Positions 1 through 55,754 of a stretch of DNA of 64,000 nt are shown one piece after another (positions within the stretch are counted from its first letter, which is position 1; every line of letters begins with the position of its first letter). A model generated the notes under the pieces. That model ran no database searches, was not told the DNA's origin, and was given only the letters and a program-made list of their open reading frames with translations. The position numbers were made by a program, and so were the translations under genes. Source of the DNA: Octopus sinensis (taxonomy: Eukaryota); the NCBI RefSeq assembly GCF_006345805.1, contig NC_043003.1:65286001-65350000 (forward strand), given 5' to 3'.

Positions 1-148
1 GCAGAAGTTCGGCATTACCTTCTGCCGGAGCCGCGTGGAGCTTAGGTGTTTCGCTCATAAACACACACATCGCCCGGTCTGAGATTCGAACCCGCGATCC
101 CCCAACTGCGAGCCCGCTGCTCTAACCACCTAGGCCATGTACCTTCAC
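1..148 (-). mobile_element. tRNA-derived SINE, 5' part (octopus OR-like, tRNA-Arg-like head)
   Basis: Reverse complement reads GTGAAGGTACATGGCCTAGGTGGTTAGAGCAGCGGGCTCGCAG...GGGTTCGAATCTC (box A/B, TCG anticodon-like loop), then the same body as 39583-39966; runs off the window edge. Confidence 0.85.
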
Positions 149-6430: not shown

Positions 6431-6786
6431 TAACAAGAGCACTCAGAGAGGCCAAACCTCCGCCAAGGCAACATCAACGTACTTTCAATGATTAACCTGA
6501 GATTGTTTTTATAATGTGAATATTTGAAATAAACTCGACTGCCCTCACACACGGGAACACTAAAAATTATCCAGACCGCTCTCAAAAATTAAATTAAAAA
6601 AACGGAAAGATAATCCAGAATGCTTGACAGATACCGGATCGATCCCAAAATCTAATCACATCATGCCACCACGAGGCCACTCGCCTCTGAAAATTTCATC
6701 TTATTCCATCCAGTGGTTCTTGAGATATCTTGTCCGCGGACAAACAAGCCAAAACAAAAAAAAAAGAACACGACTGAACAACATCA
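6431..6786 (+). mobile_element. Probable Helentron-associated (DINE-1/HINE-like) non-autonomous element, 3' end missing
   Basis: Starts AACAAGAGCACTCAGAGAGGCCAAACCTCCGCCAAGGC; contains AAATTTCATC...CCATCCAGTGGTTCTTGAGATATC...GGACAAACAA, a layout typical of such elements; recognised by pattern only. Confidence 0.5.
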
Positions 6787-6809
6787 ACAATAATAATAAT
6801 AATATCCCA

Positions 6810-7410
6810 TAATAAAAACAGGTAGGAACACAAACCACTTCCAATGCTTGAAAATATCCACATCTCACTCCTCTGGAACTTCACCGTTCAAACTGACAGA
6901 AAGATAGATGCGAATAAGCTAGACAGTACATTGAAAGACTTCAGACAAAAATCATGCCACCTCATTGATATGACTGTTCCAATCGCTACAAATGTAGCTG
7001 TCAATACCTACCAAAAACTGAGCAAGTAAAAAGATTTTGAAATAGAAACTGACAAAATGTAGAACATCAAGACTAGAACGATACATGTTGTCATAGGAAC
7101 ATTGAGAATAATGGCAAAAGGGGATGATTGCTACGTAGCACAGATACCAGGAAACCCCAAAATGGCAGAAATTCAAACGATAGTGCTCATGCGAACAGCC
7201 CATATCCTGCGTAAAATATTGTCTATGTAATCTCAAATTTCATAAGAAACTTATAAATTTCTTATGCTTTTTTTCAACATTTTCTAGAACAATACTTTGT
7301 GCAAAACCAAATAGGCATAACTCCAACATGAACTTCTAGCTTGTCTCTTGATGTCTCTGGGTGAAACTTGGAGTCAAATTGTACAAGCAAAATGCAAGTC
7401 AAACATATAA
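6810..7410 (+). mobile_element. R4/Dong-like non-LTR element 3' end (restriction-like endonuclease region and 3' UTR), decayed
   Basis: LLWNFTVQTDRKIDANKLD...IDMTVP...QKLSK, then VVIGTL...IPGNPKMAEIQTIVLMRTAHILRKILSM*; flanked by (AAT)/(AAC) arrays. Confidence 0.8.
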
Positions 7411-7474
7411 CAACAACAGCAATAAGAATAACAATAATGATAACAATAATGATAATAATAATAATAACAACAAC

Positions 7475-8940
7475 ATGCTCTCGAAGGATATTTCTGTGTT
7501 AGATCGAAAAGAGAAGGGCAAGAAAGCGCTTGAAATTGGTAATGGAGGAACTCAAACAGCGCTTCGTTGCAAAGAAAACAAAGATGGTAAGATACGATCA
7601 AAGAATGAAGGGATACCAGTTAAATAGATTATCTAGAGTAGATCAGAAGAGATACTATAAAGAAATAAATGGAGAGTGTACAGATGAAAAGTTGATACCA
7701 GATAACATTGAAAGTCAAAGGTTTTGGAGTGACAATTGGACAAGGAGCACAAGGATACTGAATGGTTACAAGAACTGAAACAAACAGTAGTCTGACCAAA
7801 ACAGGCAGAACTAGTCATTTCCGTTTGTGAAGGAAATCAGCAGTAGTGAAGGTAATCAGCAAAAGCTAGGCAGCTGGAAGGTCCCGGGACCAGGTGGAGA
7901 TCAAGGCTACTGGATCAAAAGATTTGGTGAAATTCATGCCCGAATATCTTCACAAATCAACACCTTGTTGAATGCCGACCAAGTAACACCAGAGTCGTTG
8001 GCAACGGGTAGGACGCTGCTGCACTTGAAAAACATCGAAAAACGCCATACGGTAGAGAATTACAGGCTGATATCCTGCTTGCTACTTATGTGGAAATTAT
8101 TGACTGGAATAGTCGCAGAGTCAATGTATGGACAACTAGAAAAAGATGAATTCCTGCCACACGAGCAGAAGGGTTGCAAGCTTAAGTGCAGAAGTACCAG
8201 AGATCAACTCCTGGTAGACAAAACTGTACTTAGAGACTGCAAGAGGAGGAAAACTAACTTAGCCATGTCATAGATCGGTTAACGTAAGGCATACGATATA
8301 ATCCCACAGTCTTGGATTATGGAATGTATGAACCTATTTGGTATTGCATCGAATGTTGAGCGATTGCTTGGAATAAATATGGCGTAATGGAGGACGGATC
8401 TGACAGAATATGGAAGAAGTTTAGATACAATAAAAATCAGGAGAGGCATCATTCAAGGGAACGCCTTCCGCACTGATATTTGTACTGTACATGATACCAC
8501 TAATACTGATTCTGAGGAAAGCAAAAACTGGGTATGAATCCAGGTGCCGCCAACAAAATGTCAACCACTTATTATTCATGGATAGCCTCAAGCTTTATGG
8601 TAAATATGAAGCCCAAATTAGTTATCTCGTTGATATGGTGTATACTTTCAGTGCTGATATAAGAATGGAATTCGGACTGAAAATGTGTGGTGTGTTAGAC
8701 TAGTAGAGAGGCAGAATTATATGTATGTACGGTCAAGTGATACCGTCGGGGAAGATTTTGAAGCAAATAAAACAGACGAACTTCAAGTTGTTGGAGATAT
8801 TGGAAATGGATAAATTGCTGGAGAAAGAAATAACAGAAAAATTTAAGGTGGAATTCTTGCTCAGACTGAGACTGATCCTTAAGTCGAAATTAAACGGACG
8901 GAATAAGACTGAAGCTTACGATATCTGGGCGGTTTACCTC
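7475..8940 (+). mobile_element. R4/Dong-like reverse transcriptase fragment (pseudogenised)
   Basis: ORFs 7530, 7827, 8491 and 8725 give WKVPGPGGDQGYWIK, NYRLISCL, EQKGC...RDQLLVDK, NHLLFMDSLKLYG and RLRLILKSKLNGRNK; stops and frameshifts present. Confidence 0.9.
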
Positions 8941-9019
8941 AACACTCGCCTGGTGTTAGTATGTTTGTGTTTCGTTAAAATTTTCTGAGGATTTCTATTT
9001 TCTGCCACATTTTATGATC

Positions 9020-9670
9020 TTGTTGGTGTGTATACCTTTCTCATCCCCAGACAGAAGCAATGTGATGATTGCTCTTGCTTTTGTGGTTTTAGACAGAGTT
9101 TAGATGTCTTGCAGCATTGACTGACTGGCCCGAAATTTGGAGGTAGCTCCCATCCACCTTTGCATGAACCCCTTTGCACAGCGTCTCCATTCCCTCTACT
9201 CGAGTCATAACAAAGTTCTAAACCAAAAGCAGACAGTACAGTCAAACTGGAAGCACCATTCTTTGAACCATCCAAGAAGCCGACTATATTCAATTGCCTT
9301 TAAGCAGTTGTCTTGCTGGATTTCGGTATTTTCCGGTTTATCAATATCTCTTGCGGTATTTTCTAACGTCATTTTCCCCAAAGCAGCGGACTCTTTTTCT
9401 TTTTGATTGCCGGAATCCCAGAGCCCTGAATGTTGATGATGTCATTTTCCAGCTATCTATTTCACCGGGTTGAACTTCAAGAGTGACCACGTGGCCATCT
9501 TTTCCAGTGAGATCAGTGTCAGCTCTGCTCCTTCTATTGATGGTGTCGTCACCGTAATGTCGTCAATGAACGACCTATAAGTTAAATTTCAACTGTTTCC
9601 GTGAACGCCGAGATCTCCCAACAGATTTCCTGCTTCTTCTAACAGTATATTCAAGGCTAGCACAAACAGC
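9020..9670 (-). mobile_element. HERO-like non-LTR RT fragment, decayed
   Basis: My minus-strand translation gives LFVLALNILL...RSFIDDITVTTPS...LEKMATWSLLKFNP and IEYSRLLGWFKEWCFQ, resembling HERO RT motifs (RAFMDDLTVTT, LPGKFKAW). Confidence 0.65.
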
Positions 9671-9676
9671 ACCAAT

Positions 9677-9835
9677 TGTTTCAGTCATTAGATTGTGGCC
9701 ATGCTTGGGAATCGTCTTGAAGAATTTTTAATCGAATGAGTCCATACAAGAATTTATTATTTCAAGCTTGATACTTATACCGACGACGTCCCTTGCTGAA
9801 CTGCTAAGTCACGGTGCTTAAACACATCAACACCA
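9677..9835 (-). mobile_element. SINE-A 3' half, diverged
   Basis: TTGTTTCAGTCATTAGATTGTGGCCATGC is the reverse complement of the SINE-A tail. Confidence 0.75.
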
Positions 9836-9913
9836 CCCACACACTCAGATCTATCTATCTATCTATCTATCTATCTAACTATCTATCTATCTATCTATCT
9901 ATCTACATACATT

Positions 9914-10011
<98 letters not shown>

Positions 10012-10690
10012 CGCCGGCTTCCTTACAATTTCCCAATGATACTTGATGGCGGTGGTTACGATACTGATTGGTTTTCTCATATATTGCCGACGTAGTTCTC
10101 TTGTTATATATTTACGACTATTCGAAAAAAATCTGTTGCTGAAAACACAAAAAATTATTTGATGTATCTGAGCTACAGGTGTTATATTTCACCTCTGTAT
10201 ATTAAGGACAGTAGACTTCGTACAGAATGTGCATCGTGTGTCGATTCAAGAATTTTCTTTGTGAGGACACAGTAGGATACACCTCCTCAAGTAACAAACC
10301 CAATACTGATTTCTATATCATTCTTGGTTGCATTGCTTGATACTTTGGAGAGTTTCGAGCTAAAAAAATGTTCTACGCATAAACACACACATACAGACGA
10401 GCGCACACAGACACACACACAGGCACACAAACACACACAAATATATATATGTTCGTTTACCTGTGCATATGTGTTCATATATCTTCACGTGTATATTGTA
10501 ATGAAAACACTTTTACATTCAATTGAGAGATTACGAATACATTTTCTATTGTGTACAAATTTATTATTATTTAAAAAGAGTAGTATTGCTAGTGACTTCG
10601 AAGTCAATATTCTTTTAAAAGAACTATAGACGTATATATGGCATTTCTAGCATAGATCTGTCCATAACCCCTTACGTCATAGCGAATCGA

Positions 10691-10869
10691 TGTTCTATTC
10701 CCTTTATAGAAGCCCAAGTCTCACATACATTCATACATATAACACGAAGATAAACAAATAATGTGTAGGCGCATATATATATTCTGTTGTGAGTATATAT
10801 ATATATGAGTTTGCTTAATATATAGCTTGCTTAAGAACCACATAGTAAGTAGCTTGCTTACGAACCACG
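10691..10869 (+). repeat. 179-bp direct repeat, copy 2
   Basis: Matches 6175-6353; its 3' part is the head of the SINE-A copy that follows. Confidence 0.95.
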
Positions 10870-11010
10870 TTGCAAGTAGTTTGCTTACGAACCACATGGC
10901 TCCGGGTTCAGTCCCACCACGTGGCAACTTGGGCAAGTGTCTTCTATTGCCTCGGGCCGACCAAAGCCTTCTAAATGGATCTGGTAGACGGAGTCTAAAA
11001 GAAGCCTGTC

Positions 11011-11080
<70 letters not shown>

Positions 11081-11230
11081 CATGTGTGTGTGTGTATGTT
11101 TGTGTCTGTGTTTGTCCGCCCAACATCGTTCGGCAAAAAGACCGATAGAATAAGTCCTGGGTCGATTTGCTCGGCTAAAGGCGGTGGTCCAGCATGGCCA
11201 CAGTCAAATGACTGAAGCAAGTAAAAGAGT
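10824..11230 (+). mobile_element. SINE-A (most abundant SINE here; internal (TA)n/(TG)n)
   Basis: GGGTTCAGTCCC box B-like head with a triplicated 27-bp segment, GGGCAAGTGTCTTCT core, tail GGCGGTGGTCCAGCATGGCCACAGTCAAATGACTGAA. Confidence 0.9.
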
Positions 11231-11261
11231 AAAACAGTATATATATATACATATAAACATA

Positions 11262-12082
11262 CGAAGTGTACCCAAAAGAATTAATCGAACCGTTCTCTGT
11301 AGGAGTAGAATAAGCCCGTTGTAGTTCAGGCTTCCAGCTGCTAGAAGCCACCTGATGCAACCCTCTGTGATCAGTATGTCGACTGGCGTCGCCAAGTGTA
11401 GTCCTACAGGCGCGTGGTGTGTCTTTGCTTTGCAGTGCTTCTGTCCCGTGCATCAATATTTGAGATGGATGAAACGAAGGAACAGCGTGGCTCCGTGAAA
11501 TTCTGTCTGCTGCTGGAGAAAACGGCGGCCGAAACAGTTGTCATGCTTCAAACAGCTTACAAGGATACTACCATAAGCAAGACCCAAATTTACGAGTGGT
11601 GTTTACGCTTTAGAAATGGTCACTTGTCGGTGGAATCCCAACCCCGTTCCGGGGGCTCGTCAACCTCCCGATCGAAGGACTGTTGCGGAGCAATTGATGA
11701 ATTTTAAGCCAGACATTGCAAATGAAAGGAGATTCATTAAAATTTGTGCCTCGCTTGGTCACGGAATATAAAAAGCATTCATAACTGAATATTTGCCGTG
11801 AAGTGAAAGAACAGTTGGAAGTTGATCCGGACCTTTTTTCGAAGGTCATCAATGGTGATGAAAAATGGTGCTACGGAATTTGCAAATGTGGAAGAGGTGA
11901 ACAAAAAACACGACGGAGGCATCAAAAACACTCACTTTAAAAGATTTGAAGCACTGCTTCGAAAGCACGTGCGGACCGATGCATTGCTTGAAATGGAGAT
12001 TACTTTGAAGGCGATAAAAGTGTAAACATGTAAAACTGAGTAAATAAAATAATATTGCAAAATTTCTTTTGGCTACCCCTCG
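11262..12082 (+). mobile_element. Internally deleted mariner element with TIRs and TA duplication
   Basis: TA-CGAAGTGTACCCAAAAGA ... TCTTTTGGCTACCCCTCG-TA; ORF 11414-11707 is a mariner N-terminal HTH (EQRGSVKFC...IYEWCLRFRNG...PRSG); most of the catalytic domain is missing. Confidence 0.9.
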
Positions 12083-12243
12083 TATATACATATATACATA
12101 TATATATATGTGTGTGTGTGTGTGTATGGGTGTGTATATGTGTGTGTGTTTGTATATATGTATGTGTTTGTATGTATATATGTATAGGTGTACTTATATA
12201 TGTATAAATGTATTTATATATGTATAAGTGTATATATATATAT

Positions 12244-12294
<51 letters not shown>

Positions 12295-12640
12295 TTACAT
12301 TATATAAAAGGGCTTAGTAAAATAAATTACTTTGCCGCATACTGAACTCGTTAGAAATAGCAGCTAAAAAAACTTTTTATAAAACTATTTCTAACACTTA
12401 AAGAAAACCTCTCTCATATAGTGTTTGCTCAATTCAACTCAAGAAAGTATGTGGGTAGAGACATTACCCTCAATTGTTGAAATATATATATATATATATA
12501 TAAATGTTTTGCGTTCTTGTTCTAGTTTGTGATTTTTTACATTTACCTATTATATGGCGACGCCCGTACCCCCTTTGATATTGTATGTAAAATACATTTT
12601 CTCTTTAATACATGGTACGACTCTATAACACTGTCTCTCT

Positions 12641-12872
12641 AGGCGGCGAGCTGGCAGACACGTTAGCGCGCCGAGAGAAATGCTTAGCGGTATTTCGTCT
12701 GTCGTTATGTTCTGAGTTCAAATTCCGCCGAGGTTGACTTTGCCTTTCATCCTTTTGGGGTCGATAAATTAAGTACCAGTTTCGCACTGGGGTCAATGTA
12801 ATTGACTTAATTCGTTTGTCTGTCCTTGTTTGTCCCCTTGATGTTTAGCCCCTAGTGGGCAGTAAAGAAATA
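12641..12872 (+). mobile_element. Full-length SINE-B with 17-bp target site duplication
   Basis: TATAACACTGTCTCTCT at 12624-12640 and 12873-12889. Confidence 0.95.
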
Positions 12873-12879
12873 TATAACA

Positions 12880-12914
<35 letters not shown>

Positions 12915-13029
12915 CCTCTCCTACATTTCTCTGCCTTTCACACTTTGCACTCCACTTTGACCAATCTCTTTCTCTCTCTCTATCCTCCTCCTGCTTTGTT
13001 CCTTGTTCCACTTTTTTTCTCTTTTCCTC

Positions 13030-13538
13030 TGTCCCGCTTTTCTCCCCTCTCTTCTCACACGTGACTAACTTTGGACTGCTGTCCTGCCTTTTCGTGATCA
13101 ACGGCGGTATAAGCTAGACACATATTTTTCCTCTCTTCGCTTTCAGGCATTTTTTCAATGCGCCAGCTCAAGTTCACCCGTCCTGTCGAAAAGACGCCTG
13201 TCTGTAACGTCCTGTTTTTGTTATTATTATCATTATTGGTTTTACGTATTTTCGTATTCTTATTCGTGGTATCATTATTAAATTTACGTATTTATGTATT
13301 CTTATTCGTTCCCGTCCTTGTTTTGTATACATTCGAGGCTTTCTTCCAAGGAATCTAATGCGCTTGGCTTAGATTTTCCTTTGAGGCTGGCCAGGTCGGA
13401 GCAATCTCAAGATTAATCAGCCGAAATTGCGAAGATGATACGGTTCTTAACTGAAGATCGAAGGCTTCGAATGTCCCGTTCGTTTTTTTTGTATCGTTTG
13501 TTTTGCGTTCTTGTCCCAGTTTGTGTTTTTTACATTTA

Positions 13539-13541
<3 letters not shown>
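13030..13541 (+). mobile_element. Penelope-like pLTR-type non-coding remnant ending in (TA)n
   Basis: Decayed HHR-like motifs (GAGGCTG...CAGCCGAAATT; CTGAAGA) and a T-rich 3' end that also occurs at about 12506-12548. Confidence 0.45.
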
Positions 13542-13623
<82 letters not shown>

Positions 13624-13669
13624 ATGTATATGTATATATATACATATATATGTGTATATATATATATAT

Positions 13670-14046
13670 CGCTGTGTGGTAACTACTTTGCGTACGAACC
13701 ACATGGTTCCGGGTTCAGTCCCACTAAGTGGCACCCTGGGCAAGTGTCTTCTTCTATAGCCTCGGGCCGACCAAAGCCTTGTGAGTGGATTTGGTTGACG
13801 GAAACTGAAAGAAGTCCGTCATATATATATATATATATGTGTGTATGTGTGTGTGTGTGTGTGTGTCCAACAAAACGATTGGCAACCGATGCTGGAGTCT
13901 TTACGTCCCCGTAACTTAGCAGTTCATCTTTAGAGACAGATAGAGAAAGTACTAGGCTTACAAAGAATAAGTCCTGGGGTGGATTTGCTCGACTAAAGGC
14001 GTAGCTTCAGCATGGCCGCAGTTAAAGTGACTGAAACGAGTAAAAG

Positions 14047-14048
<2 letters not shown>
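13670..14048 (+). mobile_element. SINE-A
   Basis: Full head-core-microsatellite-tail organisation; an inverted diverged 5' half follows at about 14085-14228. Confidence 0.9.
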
Positions 14049-14082
<34 letters not shown>

Positions 14083-14962
14083 ACGAGCTTTCCGTCTACT
14101 ACATTTACTCTTAAGGTCTTGTCGGGCCTGGACTACAGTAAAAAATCCCAAAGTGCAGTTCCGTTGAATTGAATCCAAAATCATTCGGTTGCAAAGGGAG
14201 CTTCTTAACCATTAAGCCGTTCCTAGGCCGGTGACAACTAAAAAGCAAAAGCAAAATATCAAGTTAAATTTAAACGCTGTATACAAAATATTTATAGAGA
14301 ACAACGTATACTATTACGGTGAAGAAGACGTAACTAATAATGACATGCAGAAATGAATGAGAAAATTAGAAAAGAGATTCGCGAGAAGAAGTCCAAATAA
14401 TACTGAAAGCTGAACTCATGCTAAAAATATTATACCATTATATACACAAGCTATCCTGGTTATAAACTACGGTTACAATATAATACTTTGGAAGATAAGT
14501 GAAGAAGACAAGTAGAAAAATACTCCCTGCATTCCAAAGGTTCCATCTTAAAACTGATATGTATAGGTTATATCTATGGGGAGGTAGGTCGACTGATTCA
14601 AATATGAAGGACTATTGTGTAGTAACTGCAGTATTCTAAAAATACTCAGATGGATACAAAGGCATGCAGTTAGGTAATTGTATGAAACATTGAAAGGCAT
14701 TATTTTTTTATCGTTATTAAAAAAAGAAAATATAAAAAGCAAAATATATAAGATAATTACAGCGAGCTTAGAAGTATTTAAATAATGAAAAAACGGAAGA
14801 AGTAAAGAAAGACATGTTAATATAGTCAAAGGGGATATCTTGATAATACTAAAGGGGATATAGAGGAAAGAATCTTTGAAAGGTCATCATGGATTATGAG
14901 GTATATATACATACATACATATATATATATATTATATATATATATATACACACATATATACA

Positions 14963-21422: not shown

Positions 21423-21973
21423 GTGTGATAGAACAGTGGATGCAAACAAAGTGACACTGAGATACAGATATACGAAGCCCAGCATGCCCATCATTATTAC
21501 CCGTCTGATAAGGGTACACCGGGCACATGCATCACAACCATATGTGCGCGACATAGTTTTCTCATATCAAGATAAACAGCACATGATCTTGCAGGTTGGG
21601 CCCAGTAACAATTTTCTTCAGGTCGAATAGCCCATCCCGATCAAAAGGTCCCTGAATGAGGGATGTTTAAGGATGATGAACAAAATACCCATATTTCCAA
21701 AGGCGAATATCCAACCTCCAAATAATTCCTCTCAACACATGGCTATAATGCTCCCCCACTACTTCTGCTCGTGATCAGGGACGCACATATCGTCAGCCAA
21801 TAAGTGACGTGTTCATCTGGTTAAGGTCAAACATCTGACAAGCAAATCTGTGGTATTGAGCAGAATATTTGCTGTAGCCCATCTTTTATACGAAGACAAA
21901 ACAATGTACATAACACTTCCAATCAGTTAAGATGTGAAACCAAGTGAGCCACTCTCTGATACTGCATTAAGTC

Positions 21974-21975
<2 letters not shown>
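21423..21975. mobile_element. Unclassified ~550-bp insertion within (TAT)n, possibly a Dong-related non-autonomous element
   Basis: Complex, GC-richer block bounded on both sides by TAT arrays; no coding motif recognised. Confidence 0.4.
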
Positions 21976-22019
<44 letters not shown>

Positions 22020-22021
22020 TA

Positions 22022-22084
<63 letters not shown>

Positions 22085-25198: not shown

Positions 25199-25593
25199 CA
25201 ATGAATGAAATGAGAATATATGAATTTTCTCTGTTTTAGATGACTAAAAAGCTCTTTTATGGTGAAATAAATTCAGTACTGGTATACTTTCTAAAATCAA
25301 GTCCTTTAACCACAAAGAGGAAATTTTAACAAAAAAATCCATTTGGATAAATCAAATTACCAGGCAGAGGTTTGATTTGTTGGTGGCAGGCCTTATAGAG
25401 TTGTTTTTGTTGTTAAAATCCAAGGTAGCTCTAATGAAGCAAGAATTACGATGAAAGGTGATCCATGCATGAAAATCTCATCTCCAAGGTTTACACAATG
25501 CTATAGTTTTCTAACATAACTACACACTGGGTATCTTAGTGTCTCATGAATTTTAGGATATAATTTAAGGATTTAAATAGCCATAATGACTGC

Positions 25594-26006
25594 GTACATT
25601 ATTTACAATGGACGGATAGGTGTGTTCACCTTGTTTGTTGCTATTACAACGTTTCAGCTGATGTGTTCAGTATACTGCTCACATTCCTAAGGTATTCCTA
25701 AGGTATGACCATGGACATATAGCGTAGTGGATAAGTGTGCGGGCTACTAACCTCCGGATCCTAAGTTCAATCCCAGGCAGAGATTGAAAAATGATACCAA
25801 CAGAAATATAACATCAGCAACATACCTTAGGAATGAGAACAGTATACCCCATTAGTCAAATAAAGGGTTGGGTTCAAAATTCCACTAAAACACCCGATGA
25901 AGGCTGGAGAGAACATCAGTCGAAACATTGTGATAGCAACAAACAAGGTGAGGAGACCTATCCGTCCATTGTAAATACTTCCTCATCTCAGAAATGTAGA
26001 AGTGTA
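25594..26006 (+). mobile_element. H1 tRNA-headed hammerhead SINE, older diverged copy with 5' inverted arm
   Basis: Inverted tail at about 25594-25706; head GGACATATAGCGTAGTGG at 25713; CCGATGAAGGCTG...CAGTCGAAACATTGTG; full 3' extension to 26006. Confidence 0.8.
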
Positions 26007-26617
26007 ATGACTGTGGGTCTTAAAATGTTTTTTTTTAAATTTTGTTTTACACAAAGGAGATTAATAAATGGTTTTCTATATTTTTGCTTGTTTTATCTTT
26101 TGGTCAAGAAGGAATGAAATTGGCCAAGATCGGTTGCATGGATTCGACGATTGACAGGAGAGTGGTAGAAAGGTGACATGAGACTGGGAACATGGTCGAG
26201 ATACTTACATCCGAGTGGACTTCGTTAAAGTTACCCAATGTTGTAGCCAGTAATACTTTACGGAATTACAGACACCACCTAAATAGGCCATACATACATT
26301 ATAACTGGAACAAATCTCGCAAAGCTTTTTGTCCGCGCTTTTAGGTCCATCGTCTTGAAATAAATTTTTTTTTATCGAGTTTGAAGGGACAAATTGAAAA
26401 CTTAGCCACAGTAGGGGCTCGGAATGCAAAGAGCCAGCATAAAAACGCCGAAGTATTCTGTCCGAAGCCCTAACACCGCTGCTAATTTGTCAAGCGTTTC
26501 TTAAATTCCCATCCGAAGTGAACCAGTAATATTTGGTTACATGTCCGGCTTGTTACAAATACAAAGGAGTTCAGAACAACTGACCCAATGCTTAATTCAT
26601 TATTTAAGTTGATTAAG

Positions 26618-39152: not shown

Positions 39153-39558
39153 GGAACGATGTCTTCCTCCAAGGGTCTTTCTCAGGTTGCGGAATGGCGA
39201 AAATTCACAGGGAACGATGGCTTCCTCTAAGGGTCTTTCTCAATTTGGAGGACGGCGAAAATTCCCAGGCAACGATGTCTTCCTCTAAAGGTCTTTCTCA
39301 GCATGGAGAACGGCGGAAATTCACAGGGAACGATGGATTCCTCTAAGGGTCTTTCTCAGTTTGGGGGACGGCGAAAATTCCCAGGCAACGATGTCTTCCT
39401 CTAAAGGTCTTTCTCAGTATGGAGAACGGCGGAAATTCACAGGGAACGATGGCTTCCTCTAAGGGTCTTTCTCAGTTTGGGGGACGGCGAAAATTCCCAG
39501 GCAACGATGTCTTCCTCTAAGGTTCTTTCTCAGCTTAGGGAATGAGGATAATTCACAT
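39153..39558. repeat. 58-bp minisatellite x7 with alternating A/B units
   Basis: Units start at 39153, 39211 ... 39501; odd units have GATGTC...CACA(G), even units GATGG...CCCAG. Confidence 0.95.
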
Positions 39559-40709: not shown

Positions 40710-41409
40710 AGAGGGAGGGATGAGAGAGAGAGGGAGAGAAATAAATAAATAGATAGGTAGATAGATAGATAGATAGAGAGAGATAGGGAGAGAGAAAGAG
40801 AGAGAGAGAGAGATAAGTTTAAGAGAAACTTTAAACTGGGAAATGAAAAGACAAAGCTGGAAAGAAGAACGAGAAAGAGATAGAAAAAGAAAAAGAGAGA
40901 AGGAAGGATGGTTGAATGAGAGAGAGAGAGAGAGAGAGAGTGACAGAGGGGGGAGAGAGATTTAGGAGGAAAGGAAAAGGAGAGAGAGAAATAAAGTGGG
41001 AAATGTTGTGATAGAGAATAATATGTACAATGTTATTTATGAGCATCTAGATATATCCTTATATAGTTATATCGATTCCATGATTATTGTCATTACATGG
41101 GGAGCGAAATATTTATATACATCTCTACAGTAAATTTAAAATGGAAATATTTCATTTGCTTGTTACTCCTAAACATAACATTTGAAGTTATTAAGATATC
41201 CTCTATTCAAACTATTTCTGATACGAGAGTCTCTAGGCAGTTTCTAGCGGTGCTAGAAAGAGAAAGCAATCTGATCAGAACTTTCGCTTAGACGCTTTAG
41301 AATATATGCTATTTTTTCTCGAAAATCTCTCTTGATCATCCAGTCTTCGGCCCTTCTAGCTTTTACCTATAGCCTATGTCTTTTCACATAAAAGAAAACT
41401 AATTTATAA

Positions 41410-41708
41410 TACAGTTCTATATTTAAGAGATGAAGAATCATGTACGTTATTTACATTATTTACATTTGACGGGTATTTGCCCACATCTTGTTCGTTGTTA
41501 ACACAACGTTTTAGTTGATATACCCTCCAGCCTTCATGAGGTGTCTTGGGGAAATTTTGAAACTGGGCATATGGCGTAGTGGTTAAGAGCGCGAGCCACT
41601 AACACCAAGATTCCGAGTTCGATTCCAGGCAGTGACCTGAATAATAATAATAATAATAATGATAATAATGATATAATAAAATATAATAATAATGATAATA
41701 ATAAAATA

Positions 41709-41766
<58 letters not shown>

Positions 41767-41924
41767 TCTAACATCGAAAAATACCTTAGGAATGAGAAGC
41801 CAGGTTCGAAATTTCCCCAAGACACCTGATGAAGGCTGGAGGGTGTATCAACCGAAACGTAGTGTTAACAACAAACAAGATGAGAACAAATATCCGTCTA
41901 ATGTAAATAATGTAAATAATGTAC
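41410..41924 (+). mobile_element. H1 tRNA-headed hammerhead SINE with 5' inverted arm
   Basis: Inverted arm at 41410-41567; head GGGCATATGGCGTAGTGG...GAGTTCGATTCC from 41565; (AAT)n; HHR at 41821-41866. Confidence 0.9.
41821..41866 (+). ncRNA. Minimal type I hammerhead motif (H1)
   Basis: GACAC CUGAUGA A GGCUG(loop)CAACC GAAAC GUA/GUGUU; one stem II mismatch. Confidence 0.65.
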
Positions 41925-42140
41925 GGAAGTTTATAATAGATATTTGTTCTACTTCCTATCTCTTAAGTTTAAGTATCCTCGAGAACCCCGTGCTCACGAA
42001 CCATCGACATTTATACTCTCGGGTTGTCACGACAGATGGTTCCATTTCTTATATATATCTACATATTTATCTATGTAAATATCTATTTATCTTTAACCCT
42101 CCTTCTTCACTTCTCTTTTTTCTGTCTCATTTCACCCTCA

Positions 42141-45921: not shown

Positions 45922-46233
45922 CAGTTCTATATTTAAGAGATGGGGAATTATTTACATTATTTACATTTGTTTGTCCTCATCTTGTTTGTTGTTAACACAA
46001 CGTTTCAGCTGATATAACCTCCAGCCTTCATCAGGTGTCTTGGGGAAACTTCGTATCTGGTTTCTCATGCTTTTCGTCATTCTATAGGTCCAGTTTTTCG
46101 CAGCATAAAACTACACCATCTCTTTGGGTTTGTATTTCATCATGCAGAAATAAATTCGGGGCATATATATGGTGCAATGGTTAAGAGCGTGGGTTAATAA
46201 CCCAAAGATTCTGAGTTCGATTCCAGGCTGTCA

Positions 46234-46314
<81 letters not shown>

Positions 46315-46467
46315 TAATAATAACAACAACAACAACAACATCGAAAAATACCTTAGGAATGAGGACCTAGGTTCAAACTTTCACCAAGACATCTTATGAA
46401 GGCTGGAGCGTATATCAGCAGAAACGTTGTGTTAACAGCAAACAAGATGACAAATATCCGTCAAATG
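45922..46467 (+). mobile_element. H1 tRNA-headed hammerhead SINE with 5' inverted arm and captured flank segment
   Basis: Inverted arm at 45922-46068, flank copy at 46069-46160, head from 46158, (AAT)n, tail. Confidence 0.9.
45994..46039 (-). ncRNA. Minimal type I hammerhead motif (H1), best-preserved copy
   Basis: GACAC CUGAUGA A GGCUG(GAGGUUAUAU)CAGCU GAAAC GUU/GUGUU. Confidence 0.7.
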
Positions 46468-46477
46468 AAAGAAGCTC

Positions 46478-51782: not shown

Positions 51783-52087
51783 CTTTTTTCCCTAAATATG
51801 AGCTGAATTCTAGAAGTACTGCAATGTCAGGTCAGCAACACGGCAAAAGTGGAGCAAGCCCCTTAAATTTCGCCTCATTTTAAAAATCAATTTAATATCT
51901 ATGGCTCAGATCGGGACTGTATGGGATATTAAGCTGATGAGAATAAATACTAGGCTTTGGTCTTATCCAAAAGACCAAAAAGCGTATGTATGCAAACTTT
52001 ACGCTTTTATTCTTCTTCTTGTTTCAGTTATTGGGCCAGTGCCCTGCTGGGGCACCACCATGAAAGATTCAGTCAATGATATCATAT

Positions 52088-53572: not shown

Positions 53573-54401
53573 CATACACACATGCACGCACACACATCCA
53601 CACGCACATCCACACACGTACACGCACGCACTTTCACACACACACACGTACAGACTGAAACACATACATACATTCTTACAAATATACAAGATACAACAAA
53701 TCGGCCTCATACATCCGCCCACGTATTTATTCACATAAATACAGAATTACCTCTAAATATAACACAATGCATAGACGCTTTTTTTTTAAAGCCGTTTACA
53801 CAGATATATATCAATATGTGTGTGTTTCCATACGTTACTATTTCCAGACACGGTCTGATAGATGTGAGATTACTTACAGACAAATTATATTTACTAGAAT
53901 TTCGTCGACAATAACCATAGGAAGTCACTGAACTTTCAAAGCGGAACTTTCAGAGCAATTGTCATATTTTCACTAATACAAACTTTGATGGATTTTATTA
54001 AATTTCAGTATTTTGTGTTATTATTCTTACTAGATTTGATGTCTAAAATAAAACATATGAAGTTTTTGTCACGAAATCAATGCAACTTTTCCTCAACATG
54101 CATATTATATTTGCATTATTTTATTACTTTCATGGTTCACATAGAGTCGTACACGTGTACATGGTGGATATTAACTCGTAGACGAGTGTGATTATCACTG
54201 ACTAATTATCATATCATTGACGTTAAAGACACAACTGTCAACAATGCCAGTACTGAAATTTAAAATCAATAACAGCCTGCACAACGAACACTAAGATTCT
54301 CACCTACTAAGCCAAGCAGCATAGAAACAAGCAAGAGCATGATCTCCAGCTTTGCAATGAAGCGGGTGTTATAGCAGAATTACATTCTCCAAGAGAGATA
54401 C

Positions 54402-54614
54402 TACAGTTCTATATTTGAGAGATGAAGAATTATTTACATTATTTACATTTGACGGTTATTTGTCCTCATCTTGTTTGTTGTTAACACAACGTTTCGGCTG
54501 ATATACCCTCCAGACTTCATCAGGTGTCTTGGGGAAATTTTTCGAACCTTGGTTCTCACTTCTAAGGTATTTTTCGATGTTGTTGTTGTTGTTGTTATTG
54601 CTGTTGTTGTCGTC

Positions 54615-54667
<53 letters not shown>

Positions 54668-54675
54668 CATCATCA

Positions 54676-54706
<31 letters not shown>

Positions 54707-54820
54707 GATCACTGCTTGGAATCGAACTCGGAATCTTGGGGTTAATAACCTGCGCTCTTAACTCCAAGAATCCGAGTTCGATTCCAGGCAGTGACTTGAA
54801 TCATAATAATAATAATAATG

Positions 54821-54875
<55 letters not shown>

Positions 54876-55044
54876 TAATAATAATAACAACAACAACATC
54901 GAAAAATACCTTAGGAATGAGAACCCAAGTTCGAAATTTCCCCAAGACACCTGATAAAGGCTGGTGAGTATATCAGCCGAAACGTTGTGTTAAAAACAAA
55001 AAAGATGAGGACAAATATCCGTCAAATGTAAATAATGTAAATAA
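54402..55044. mobile_element. H1 head-to-head pair (two near-complete copies)
   Basis: Minus copy 54402-54762 (HHR 54483-54528, core intact) and plus copy 54759-55044 (HHR 54946-54991, G8A); joined at a TAAC microhomology inside the tRNA head. Confidence 0.92.
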
Positions 55045-55754
55045 CGTCCAAGGTAGATGTTTAAACAAAGACTAGGGTTCTCTAACTTCCAGCTGTTGGA
55101 TGGTCGTTGATTCTACAGAGTCAATCCGTCCTTTGAAAGAGTTGTTTTTAATCTTGCAGAATGTCCTCATCTCGAAAAAATAGAAAAAAAGAACTACCCT
55201 CCTCAGCCAGCAGGCTTGGTATGGATGCCGGTTTAGTCGCCGATCGCCTGATTATGCGATAACTTGTACTAGGTTATAAGTTACCAGTCGCAATAAGATT
55301 GATGTTTCAGAAATATATATATGCATGCATACCTATCACAGAGGTATGTATACATATCTTATTTCTTACTAGTTTCAGGAAGAATCTGAGGCCATGCTGG
55401 GGCACTGCTTTCAGTGTGATAGATTTCATTCCTGTACATTATCTGGCGAAGAAGTGTTTTGGAACGAGCTACTCATTTTCTGTGCATCCTGCCGCGATAT
55501 GTGTTCATCTGCTCTCCTGATTAAAAATTAGTCCAGATGTTCCTTGAAGACACCTACATTGCTAGAAATGGGAGTAAAATACTCCTGGTGCTGTAAAAAA
55601 AAGAGCACAAATGTATACATATACGCTTACATGGGAAGAAACAACCCCATGACCGAATCGAGACTCTCTCAGACTAGACAGCTTATTTCGCGTATTTCTG
55701 TACAATTCATCCGCGTGTGGGCTCATTCCAGTTCGGTAAAACAGAACGATAGAA

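Follow-up and report, generated by a model that had tools for sequence, protein, structure and literature searches.

At 54402..55044 of the window, the 64,000-nt stretch of Octopus sinensis DNA analysed here, two copies of a repeat that we call H1 lie head to head, and one arm carries a 3' extension of about 30 nt while the other stops short. Is such a pair one insertion or two, and what makes its two ends differ? The window holds four pairs, and we read the following features in them.

54388..54399: left copy of a degenerate 12-bp target-site duplication (10/12 identical to 55047-55058)
54402..54762, minus strand: tailed (L) arm with head 18-71, AAT/AAC run and body 1-178 (170/178 letters match the body)
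54402..54428, minus strand: 27-nt tail, body 152-178, whose outer end would be the downstream RT start site
54483..54528, minus strand: putative minimal type I hammerhead motif of the tailed arm (motif positions and fold of the majority sequence)
54578..54706, minus strand: (AAC)/(AAT) microsatellite spacer of the pLTR
54759..54762: head-to-head junction, a 4-nt overlap TAAC at a stem of the tRNA-like head
54759..55046, plus strand: short (S) arm with head 36-75, AAT run 54799-54898 and body 1-150 (143/150 letters)
54946..54991, plus strand: putative hammerhead motif of the short arm, one core letter changed
55047..55058: right copy of the target-site duplication (10/12 match to the left copy)
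41410..41924: second pair (L111), tailed minus arm with body 30-178 and short plus arm with full head
41400-41411 and 41927-41938: duplication of the second pair (10/12)
45922..46470: third pair, tailed minus arm with body 23-176 and short plus arm ending at body 137
25594..26006: fourth, older pair in opposite orientation (77-84% identity), tail on the plus arm
25584-25594 and 26005-26015: duplication of the fourth pair (10/11)

The duplication at 54402 scores 6, under the cut-off of 8 used in the genome survey, and was read by eye. The short arm of this pair ends in a zone of 9-nt repeats, and the hairpin at its junction is also used in L014, L020 and L123. In the 41410 pair, each arm holds sequence absent from the other. 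The junction of the 45922 pair contains about 98 unrelated bases (46069-46166), and no clear duplication flanks this pair.

The sequence-only reading of this DNA had placed the tail on the minus arm at 54402, 41410 and 45922, with a short plus arm, and this layout is as claimed. It also had the plus arm stop at or before GTAAATAATGTA; the arm at 45922 does stop before the first GTAAATAATGTA, whereas those at 54402 and 41410 run one 9-nt unit past it. The pattern is reversed at 25594, as described, but the reversal is one of insertion orientation only: in the pattern-sampled set, 17 pairs have a minus-arm tail and 19 a plus-arm tail. TAAC (54759-54762) and GGG (41565-41567) are present at their junctions, whereas the 45922 junction has no microhomology.

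The H1 unit consists of a 75-nt tRNA-like head, an AAT run and a 178-nt body that contains a hammerhead motif. A 33-nt core has 1,997 exact copies in the genome (control, 0), which scales to about 6,700-14,200 H1 arms, and copies are ~93% identical to the majority sequence (~7% diverged). Longer copies extend past the head, on its upstream side, into the 3' end of an ORF and from there into an RT; downstream of the tail, some copies (e.g., L282 and L296) read from the body through the tail into the ORF start. Since head and body are contiguous with the ORF on both sides, H1 is not an independent non-coding unit, and we dropped an initial description of it as a free-standing tRNA-derived SINE.

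RT pieces at L262 match PF00078 (E 1.2e-8) and are 42% identical to P0066, an 836-aa Anolis protein with which the region of the DKG motif aligns. The N-terminal half of the ORF is collinear with P0066 (34% identity over 309 aa), and L296 contains head, body and a 401-aa open frame; stops or frameshifts break every long copy seen. Longer H1 copies reach RT and putative EN regions, and tandem arrays are rare in the sample. Pfam gave no GIY-YIG endonuclease match on the ORF fragments. By eye, C-terminal ORF pieces resemble the VYxIPCSCG region of P0066 and P0018, at the C-terminal position expected for EN, and PF01541 is present in some RT homologues. As expected for the clade, the pLTR overlaps the ORF start and is formed by partial tandems, and insertions combine an inverted 5'-truncated copy, a one-sided tail and a target duplication. 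With the clade placed by collinearity with P0066, H1 is best identified as the pLTR of a Poseidon-type Penelope-like element (PLE), and the earlier assignment to a Penelope pLTR with a tail is borne out by the linked RT ORF. H1 is a new family of a known kind, and its overall architecture is already known.

Judged by motif positions and the fold of the majority sequence, the hammerhead motif is of the minimal type I, with an intact core, a 5-bp stem I, a 6-bp stem II, GAAAC and a palindromic stem III. This layout fits the description in the available part of PMC4209133. Rfam matched neither a hammerhead nor a tRNA in H1; both labels are taken from motifs, and the hammerhead is best termed a putative ribozyme. 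ARAGORN called the head at a relaxed threshold only, with a wrapped, poor structure.

We sampled H1 by exact pattern and by core, head and ORF searches because spaced random DNA was too sparse (one H1 locus in 200 kb of genome). The sampling was blind to the 3' end and comprised 90 loci of the pattern list, taken in position order and covering 96 of 100 listed places, together with 60 core, 30 head and 70 ORF-region loci; a tail-biased set of 30 loci was counted separately. The distribution of H1 is uneven: more than one-third of the first 100 listed pattern matches lie within ~11 Mb of C1 (~108-119 Mb), and the window has four pairs in 30 kb (25.6-55.0 kb) versus one locus in 200 kb of spaced samples.

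The sample comprises 262 clusters, of which 148 are head-to-head, 113 one-directional and 1 complex. Both ends could be classified in 93 of the 148 head-to-head clusters, the other 55 being unclassified at one or both ends. A tailed arm faces a short arm in 84 of these 93 pairs, two short arms face each other in 7 and two tailed arms in at most 2, where 0.50 would be expected for tailed plus short (binomial p 9e-17). A stricter first pass gave 64, 6 and 0 of 70, respectively, and the position-ordered pattern sample by itself gave 41/46 tailed plus short. One-direction copies are mixed (37 short, 33 tailed); both end types thus occur freely and almost never twice per pair. The tail score is bimodal, with zero arms at 18-19 of 27. 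Our first end classifier over-called tails (four false tailed-plus-tailed pairs) and was replaced. The pairing rule is not absolute, given the seven short-plus-short pairs, at least one of which (L097) has its own duplication. The two rows listed as tailed plus tailed are L223, with a tail score of 14/27, and L218, which retains the last 17 tail letters after a deletion and may be a true tailed-plus-tailed pair with a deleted tail.

The asymmetry first read from the window extends across the genome sample. The proposal of two fixed start positions stands for the long end, which is tight (76/94 within body 173-181), but not for the short end, which is scattered across a zone of 9-nt repeats ~25 nt long. 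The second start stays within body ~137-160 and has no fixed base there. The 9-nt unit, with a 6-nt overlap, occurs in 0 to 4 copies that vary independently between the arms of one insertion. This variation, in body 128-151 (for example, 55024-55046 of the window), resembles template slippage, and the unit count varies in read-through copies too.

As evidence of target-site duplication we accepted a direct repeat anchored at both outer ends of a pair, with a cut-off of 8. By this test, a duplication surrounds the whole pair in 57/94 pairs versus 0/500 shuffled controls, and 35 of the 57 are 10-13 bp long; 37/94 pairs are without a duplication at the cut-off. A looser test gave 67.5% versus 2.0% of 80. 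Since one duplication encloses both arms, each pair represents one insertion. Three insertions in other repeats were compared with paralogous empty copies (71, 11 and 68 hits), and each shows a duplication and zero loss. The duplications are 10, 10 and 20 bp long; by eye, the 20 bp consist of 13 bp and diverged ends of the element. L013 and L201, with one uninformative hit each, were left out of this comparison. Both flanks of L013 carry the same (CAT)n-led repeat in mirror orientation, and the palindrome extends past the element. An orthologous empty site for L196:3000-4700 was not found in public runs, where two contain the insertion, two lack the unique flank and the output was swamped by repeat copies. 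Contigs of two other runs cross the ends of one pair, its S end (X3) and its L end (X17). The duplication abuts or overlaps the short end, with an overlap in 34/57 pairs as a raw count. Targets show no clear nick motif beyond AT-richness.

We then compared the two arms of each pair. The 5' end of the short arm lies beyond that of the tailed arm by more than 10 nt in 48/101 pairs, among them the 41410 pair of the window, and the reverse holds in 26/101 (p 0.014); without the tail-biased set, the counts are 44 and 22 of 86. In most asymmetric pairs, both arms contain sequence missing from the partner. An excess of at least 300 nt is found in the short arm of 11 pairs, where it spans 300-1700 nt, and in the tailed arm of 5. 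Neither arm is thus a simple copy of the other, the short arm being more often the one that extends further 5'. Five of the 69 one-direction loci whose 5' end is visible conceal a very small second arm in opposite orientation, in every case of the other class; at L034, a tailed arm of ~8 nt lies inside an intact duplication. In 19/87 pairs the short arm exceeds its tailed partner in number of 9-nt units; unit counts of paired arms are uncorrelated (rho 0.12), and the short arm has A where its partner has C in 9/15. Non-CpG variants common to both arms occur at 0.0048 per site versus 0.0016 in shuffled pairs (0/1000 shuffles reach that value; 7/55 shared variants stem from one old locus). A two-site haplotype is concordant in three of four pairs and discordant in L041. 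These shared variants point to one source for paired arms, be it a single RNA molecule or not; the L041 discordance and the rho of 0.12 fit two RNAs as well as one.

Where the arms meet, the position varies from locus to locus. Stops at head 1-5, a small hairpin that opens the head, were found for 25 tailed and 32 short arms of 101 pairs. Of the 101 junctions, 20 show symmetry to within 3 nt, and near-symmetry at places other than the main stop site is seen in 11; the two sets overlap. Extra letters are absent from 28 of the 53 junctions that could be measured, and 23 of the 28 overlap by at least 2 nt (simulated null, 18.9%). Microhomology, which had been proposed for the junctions in general, thus fits about half of them (23/53), whereas 25/53 hold 1-28 unaligned letters. 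Later deletions at the palindrome centre could have shifted junctions, with copies ~7% diverged.

We consider it probable that each head-to-head pair is one insertion produced by two primings, one per nicked target strand. This reading, drawn wholly from the DNA of the H1 family, is the best supported of those that we weighed, and it builds on the pairing of tailed with short ends, the enclosing duplication, arms that are not subsets of each other and variants shared above chance. The two priming events per insertion that were first proposed from the window alone are retained here, and we infer them from the single duplication per pair and the non-nested arms. The element protein would nick both target strands ~12 bp apart, presumably leaving 3' overhangs. 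Each freed 3' end would prime its own cDNA on element RNA, with starts at the downstream tail site for one and ~30 nt upstream for the other, and a protein dimer might place one primer per RNA start site. Both cDNAs would head for the RNA 5' end and mostly stop early, often at the hairpin of the tRNA-like head. Their 3' ends would be joined by microhomology or end-joining, with repair filling both arms. More tentatively, both copies may come from one RNA molecule, with the RT at the short site running ahead, and the RT may slip in the 9-nt repeat at the short site, gaining or losing units.

To relate these sites to biochemical data, we used P0066. A by-eye translation of the RNA in Suppl. Fig. 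1 of PMC11167929 agrees with P0066 residues 11-41 apart from one difference, and P0066 therefore stands for the element studied in vitro. The tailed end of H1 aligns to P0066 residue 39 (nt 115-117), inside the in vitro start window 111-118. According to the text of PMC11167929, the Anolis protein nicks and extends both strands in vitro, starts at two internal sites bounding the tail and is predicted to be a dimer. The same text reports start sites per strand rather than per molecule and gives no start-site difference between top and bottom strands; this result is neutral to double priming, since a symmetric target gives the same outcome even if the sites are paired.

A pair might also arise if a strand made from the tail site folded, was copied back and stopped ~30 nt short before joining the other target end, its centre being later blurred by deletions; self-priming on an antisense template is proposed in the available part of PMC3846280. 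One tail per pair follows naturally from such a fold-back, as do variants common to both arms, and the symmetric, hairpin-centred junctions described above (20 and 11), including the TAAC junction at 54402, agree with it. However, under fold-back every short arm should be contained within its tailed arm, and the short arm is the 5'-longer one in 48 pairs against 26, a count that unbiased later deletion is unable to tilt that way, and by 300-1700 nt in 11. The ~8-nt tailed arm within the intact duplication at L034, short arms unlike their partners in repeat count and letter and the short-plus-short pair with a duplication at L097 also speak against it. We regard fold-back as unlikely, and it may lie behind a subset of pairs.

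If instead the cDNAs on both strands started from the tail site, with one RNA or two as template, and one tail was later removed by the endonuclease or by host repair during resolution of the intermediate, the absent tailed-plus-tailed pairs and the ragged short end would be accounted for. The available part of PMC8557442 suggests EN-mediated resolution as the tail source, and the tail is required for endonuclease recognition in D. virilis, as cited in the text of PMC11167929. Trimming adds no repeat units, however, whereas short ends carry extra units in 19/87 pairs; the duplication abuts or overlaps the short end (overlap in 34/57 as a raw count), and two RT start sites were directly seen in vitro for the Anolis protein (PMC11167929, text). 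We hold trimming to be quite improbable. It is very improbable indeed that the arms are chance neighbours (a second insertion into a first), that they were copied from a palindromic source formed beforehand or that they are assembly artefacts, even though PLEs are reported to insert beside older copies (PMC6765202, in the part available). One duplication encloses both arms, and chance pairing predicts 50% tailed plus short versus the 84/93 counted. Junctions that differ among loci speak against a pre-formed source; arms that differ by ~11% within a pair, unlike chimeric reads, and the X3 and X17 contigs speak against an artefact. This reading is refuted by the pairing count and the enclosing duplications, provided that the duplications are not internal to one arm.

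Penelope-like elements are the closest relatives of telomerase RT. As a tentative extension of double priming, which we would doubt sooner than assert, the RT-endonuclease could be a functionally asymmetric dimer on one RNA that cuts ~12 bp apart, loads the tail site and the upstream 9-nt repeat, slips in a telomerase-like manner and displaces a strand; a Pol III promoter in the pLTR may supply short templates, as a built-in SINE. If this were true, tail, inversion and duplication would be explained in one step, and the self-priming model would be replaced.

In L1 twin priming, cDNA is primed from both target strands and microhomology links the two products within a single duplication; the internal position where the second primer anneals is a matter of chance, and each arm represents a different stretch of the RNA. 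In H1 pairs, by contrast, the two starts have family-specific positions ~30 nt from each other and both arms share most of the body, so that the non-overlapping arms and chance second site typical of L1 are not seen. Unlike in L1, this overlap calls for strand displacement or two templates. If double priming is true, PLEs depart from the usual LINE scheme in that RNA-templated copies made on each target end supply both strands of the insertion.

Among known PLEs, PAc (Poseidon_Ac) of Anolis carolinensis, as described in the text of PMC11167929, shares with H1 the collinear ORF, the hammerhead (putative in H1) over the ORF start, AT-rich targets, a tail bounded by two sites and the ORF position of the long end. 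That text draws no link from the two start sites to inverted pairs, and the H1 pLTR additionally has the tRNA-like head and the AAT run. For inverted-pLTR insertions of EN+ PLEs such as Pen2a_Av (PMC3846280) and those in Fig. 2 of PMC8557442, the available parts describe head-to-head inverted pLTRs with a 30-40 nt tail at one end, an 8-10 bp duplication and palindromic junctions; inverted pLTRs, one-sided tails and duplications of PLEs are thus already published. For such EN+ PLEs, these parts call the tail optional and ascribe the inversion to self-priming on an antisense template or leave it open, whereas in H1 the pairing is counted (84/93) and the subset test opposes self-priming in most asymmetric pairs. 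Non-LTR retrozymes and Schistosoma hammerhead SINE-like elements (10.64898/2026.07.22.740005 and PMC6765202, in the parts available) are likewise short units from a PLE pLTR in which a promoter-like head precedes a hammerhead (putative in H1), but H1 is no separate non-coding family, its longer copies running into RT and putative EN regions.

The available parts of PMC3846280, PMC8557442 and PMC11167929 call the origin of the inverted repeats and one-sided tail unresolved. In the portions of the PLE literature that we covered (including PMC9977147, PMC6962438 and the text of PMC11167929), we found neither the near-obligate tailed-plus-short pairing nor the double-priming reading. With the pairing rule counted and the subset test in place, this mechanism becomes open to test: the counts predict sharply that each doubly nicked target carries one long and one short start, which the Anolis in vitro system could check.

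Some further observations concern the head and its surroundings. The tRNA-like head (41566-41638 of the window; 1015-1086 of L296) contains A- and B-box-like motifs, judged against the Pol III consensus. Its start coincides, to within a few bases, with the beginning of many arms, and the sense strand of the joined reference has zero four-T runs for ~1,700 nt after it. The head might act as an internal Pol III promoter from which short templates arise, or it might do no more than stall the RT; our literature search found no tRNA-like head with Pol III-type boxes inside a PLE pLTR. Another repeat family lies inside or against AAT runs, including the pLTR spacer, where the head-body gap is 500-1,100 nt (L011, L046, L050, L144, L146, L174 and L207; window ~21930-22083), and is likely an AAT-targeting retroelement. 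A full-length U2 snRNA match at 51793-51986 on the minus strand (77.4 bits, several changes) is a gene or pseudogene, and a tandem array of a 58-bp unit in about seven copies occupies 39155-39557 of the window.
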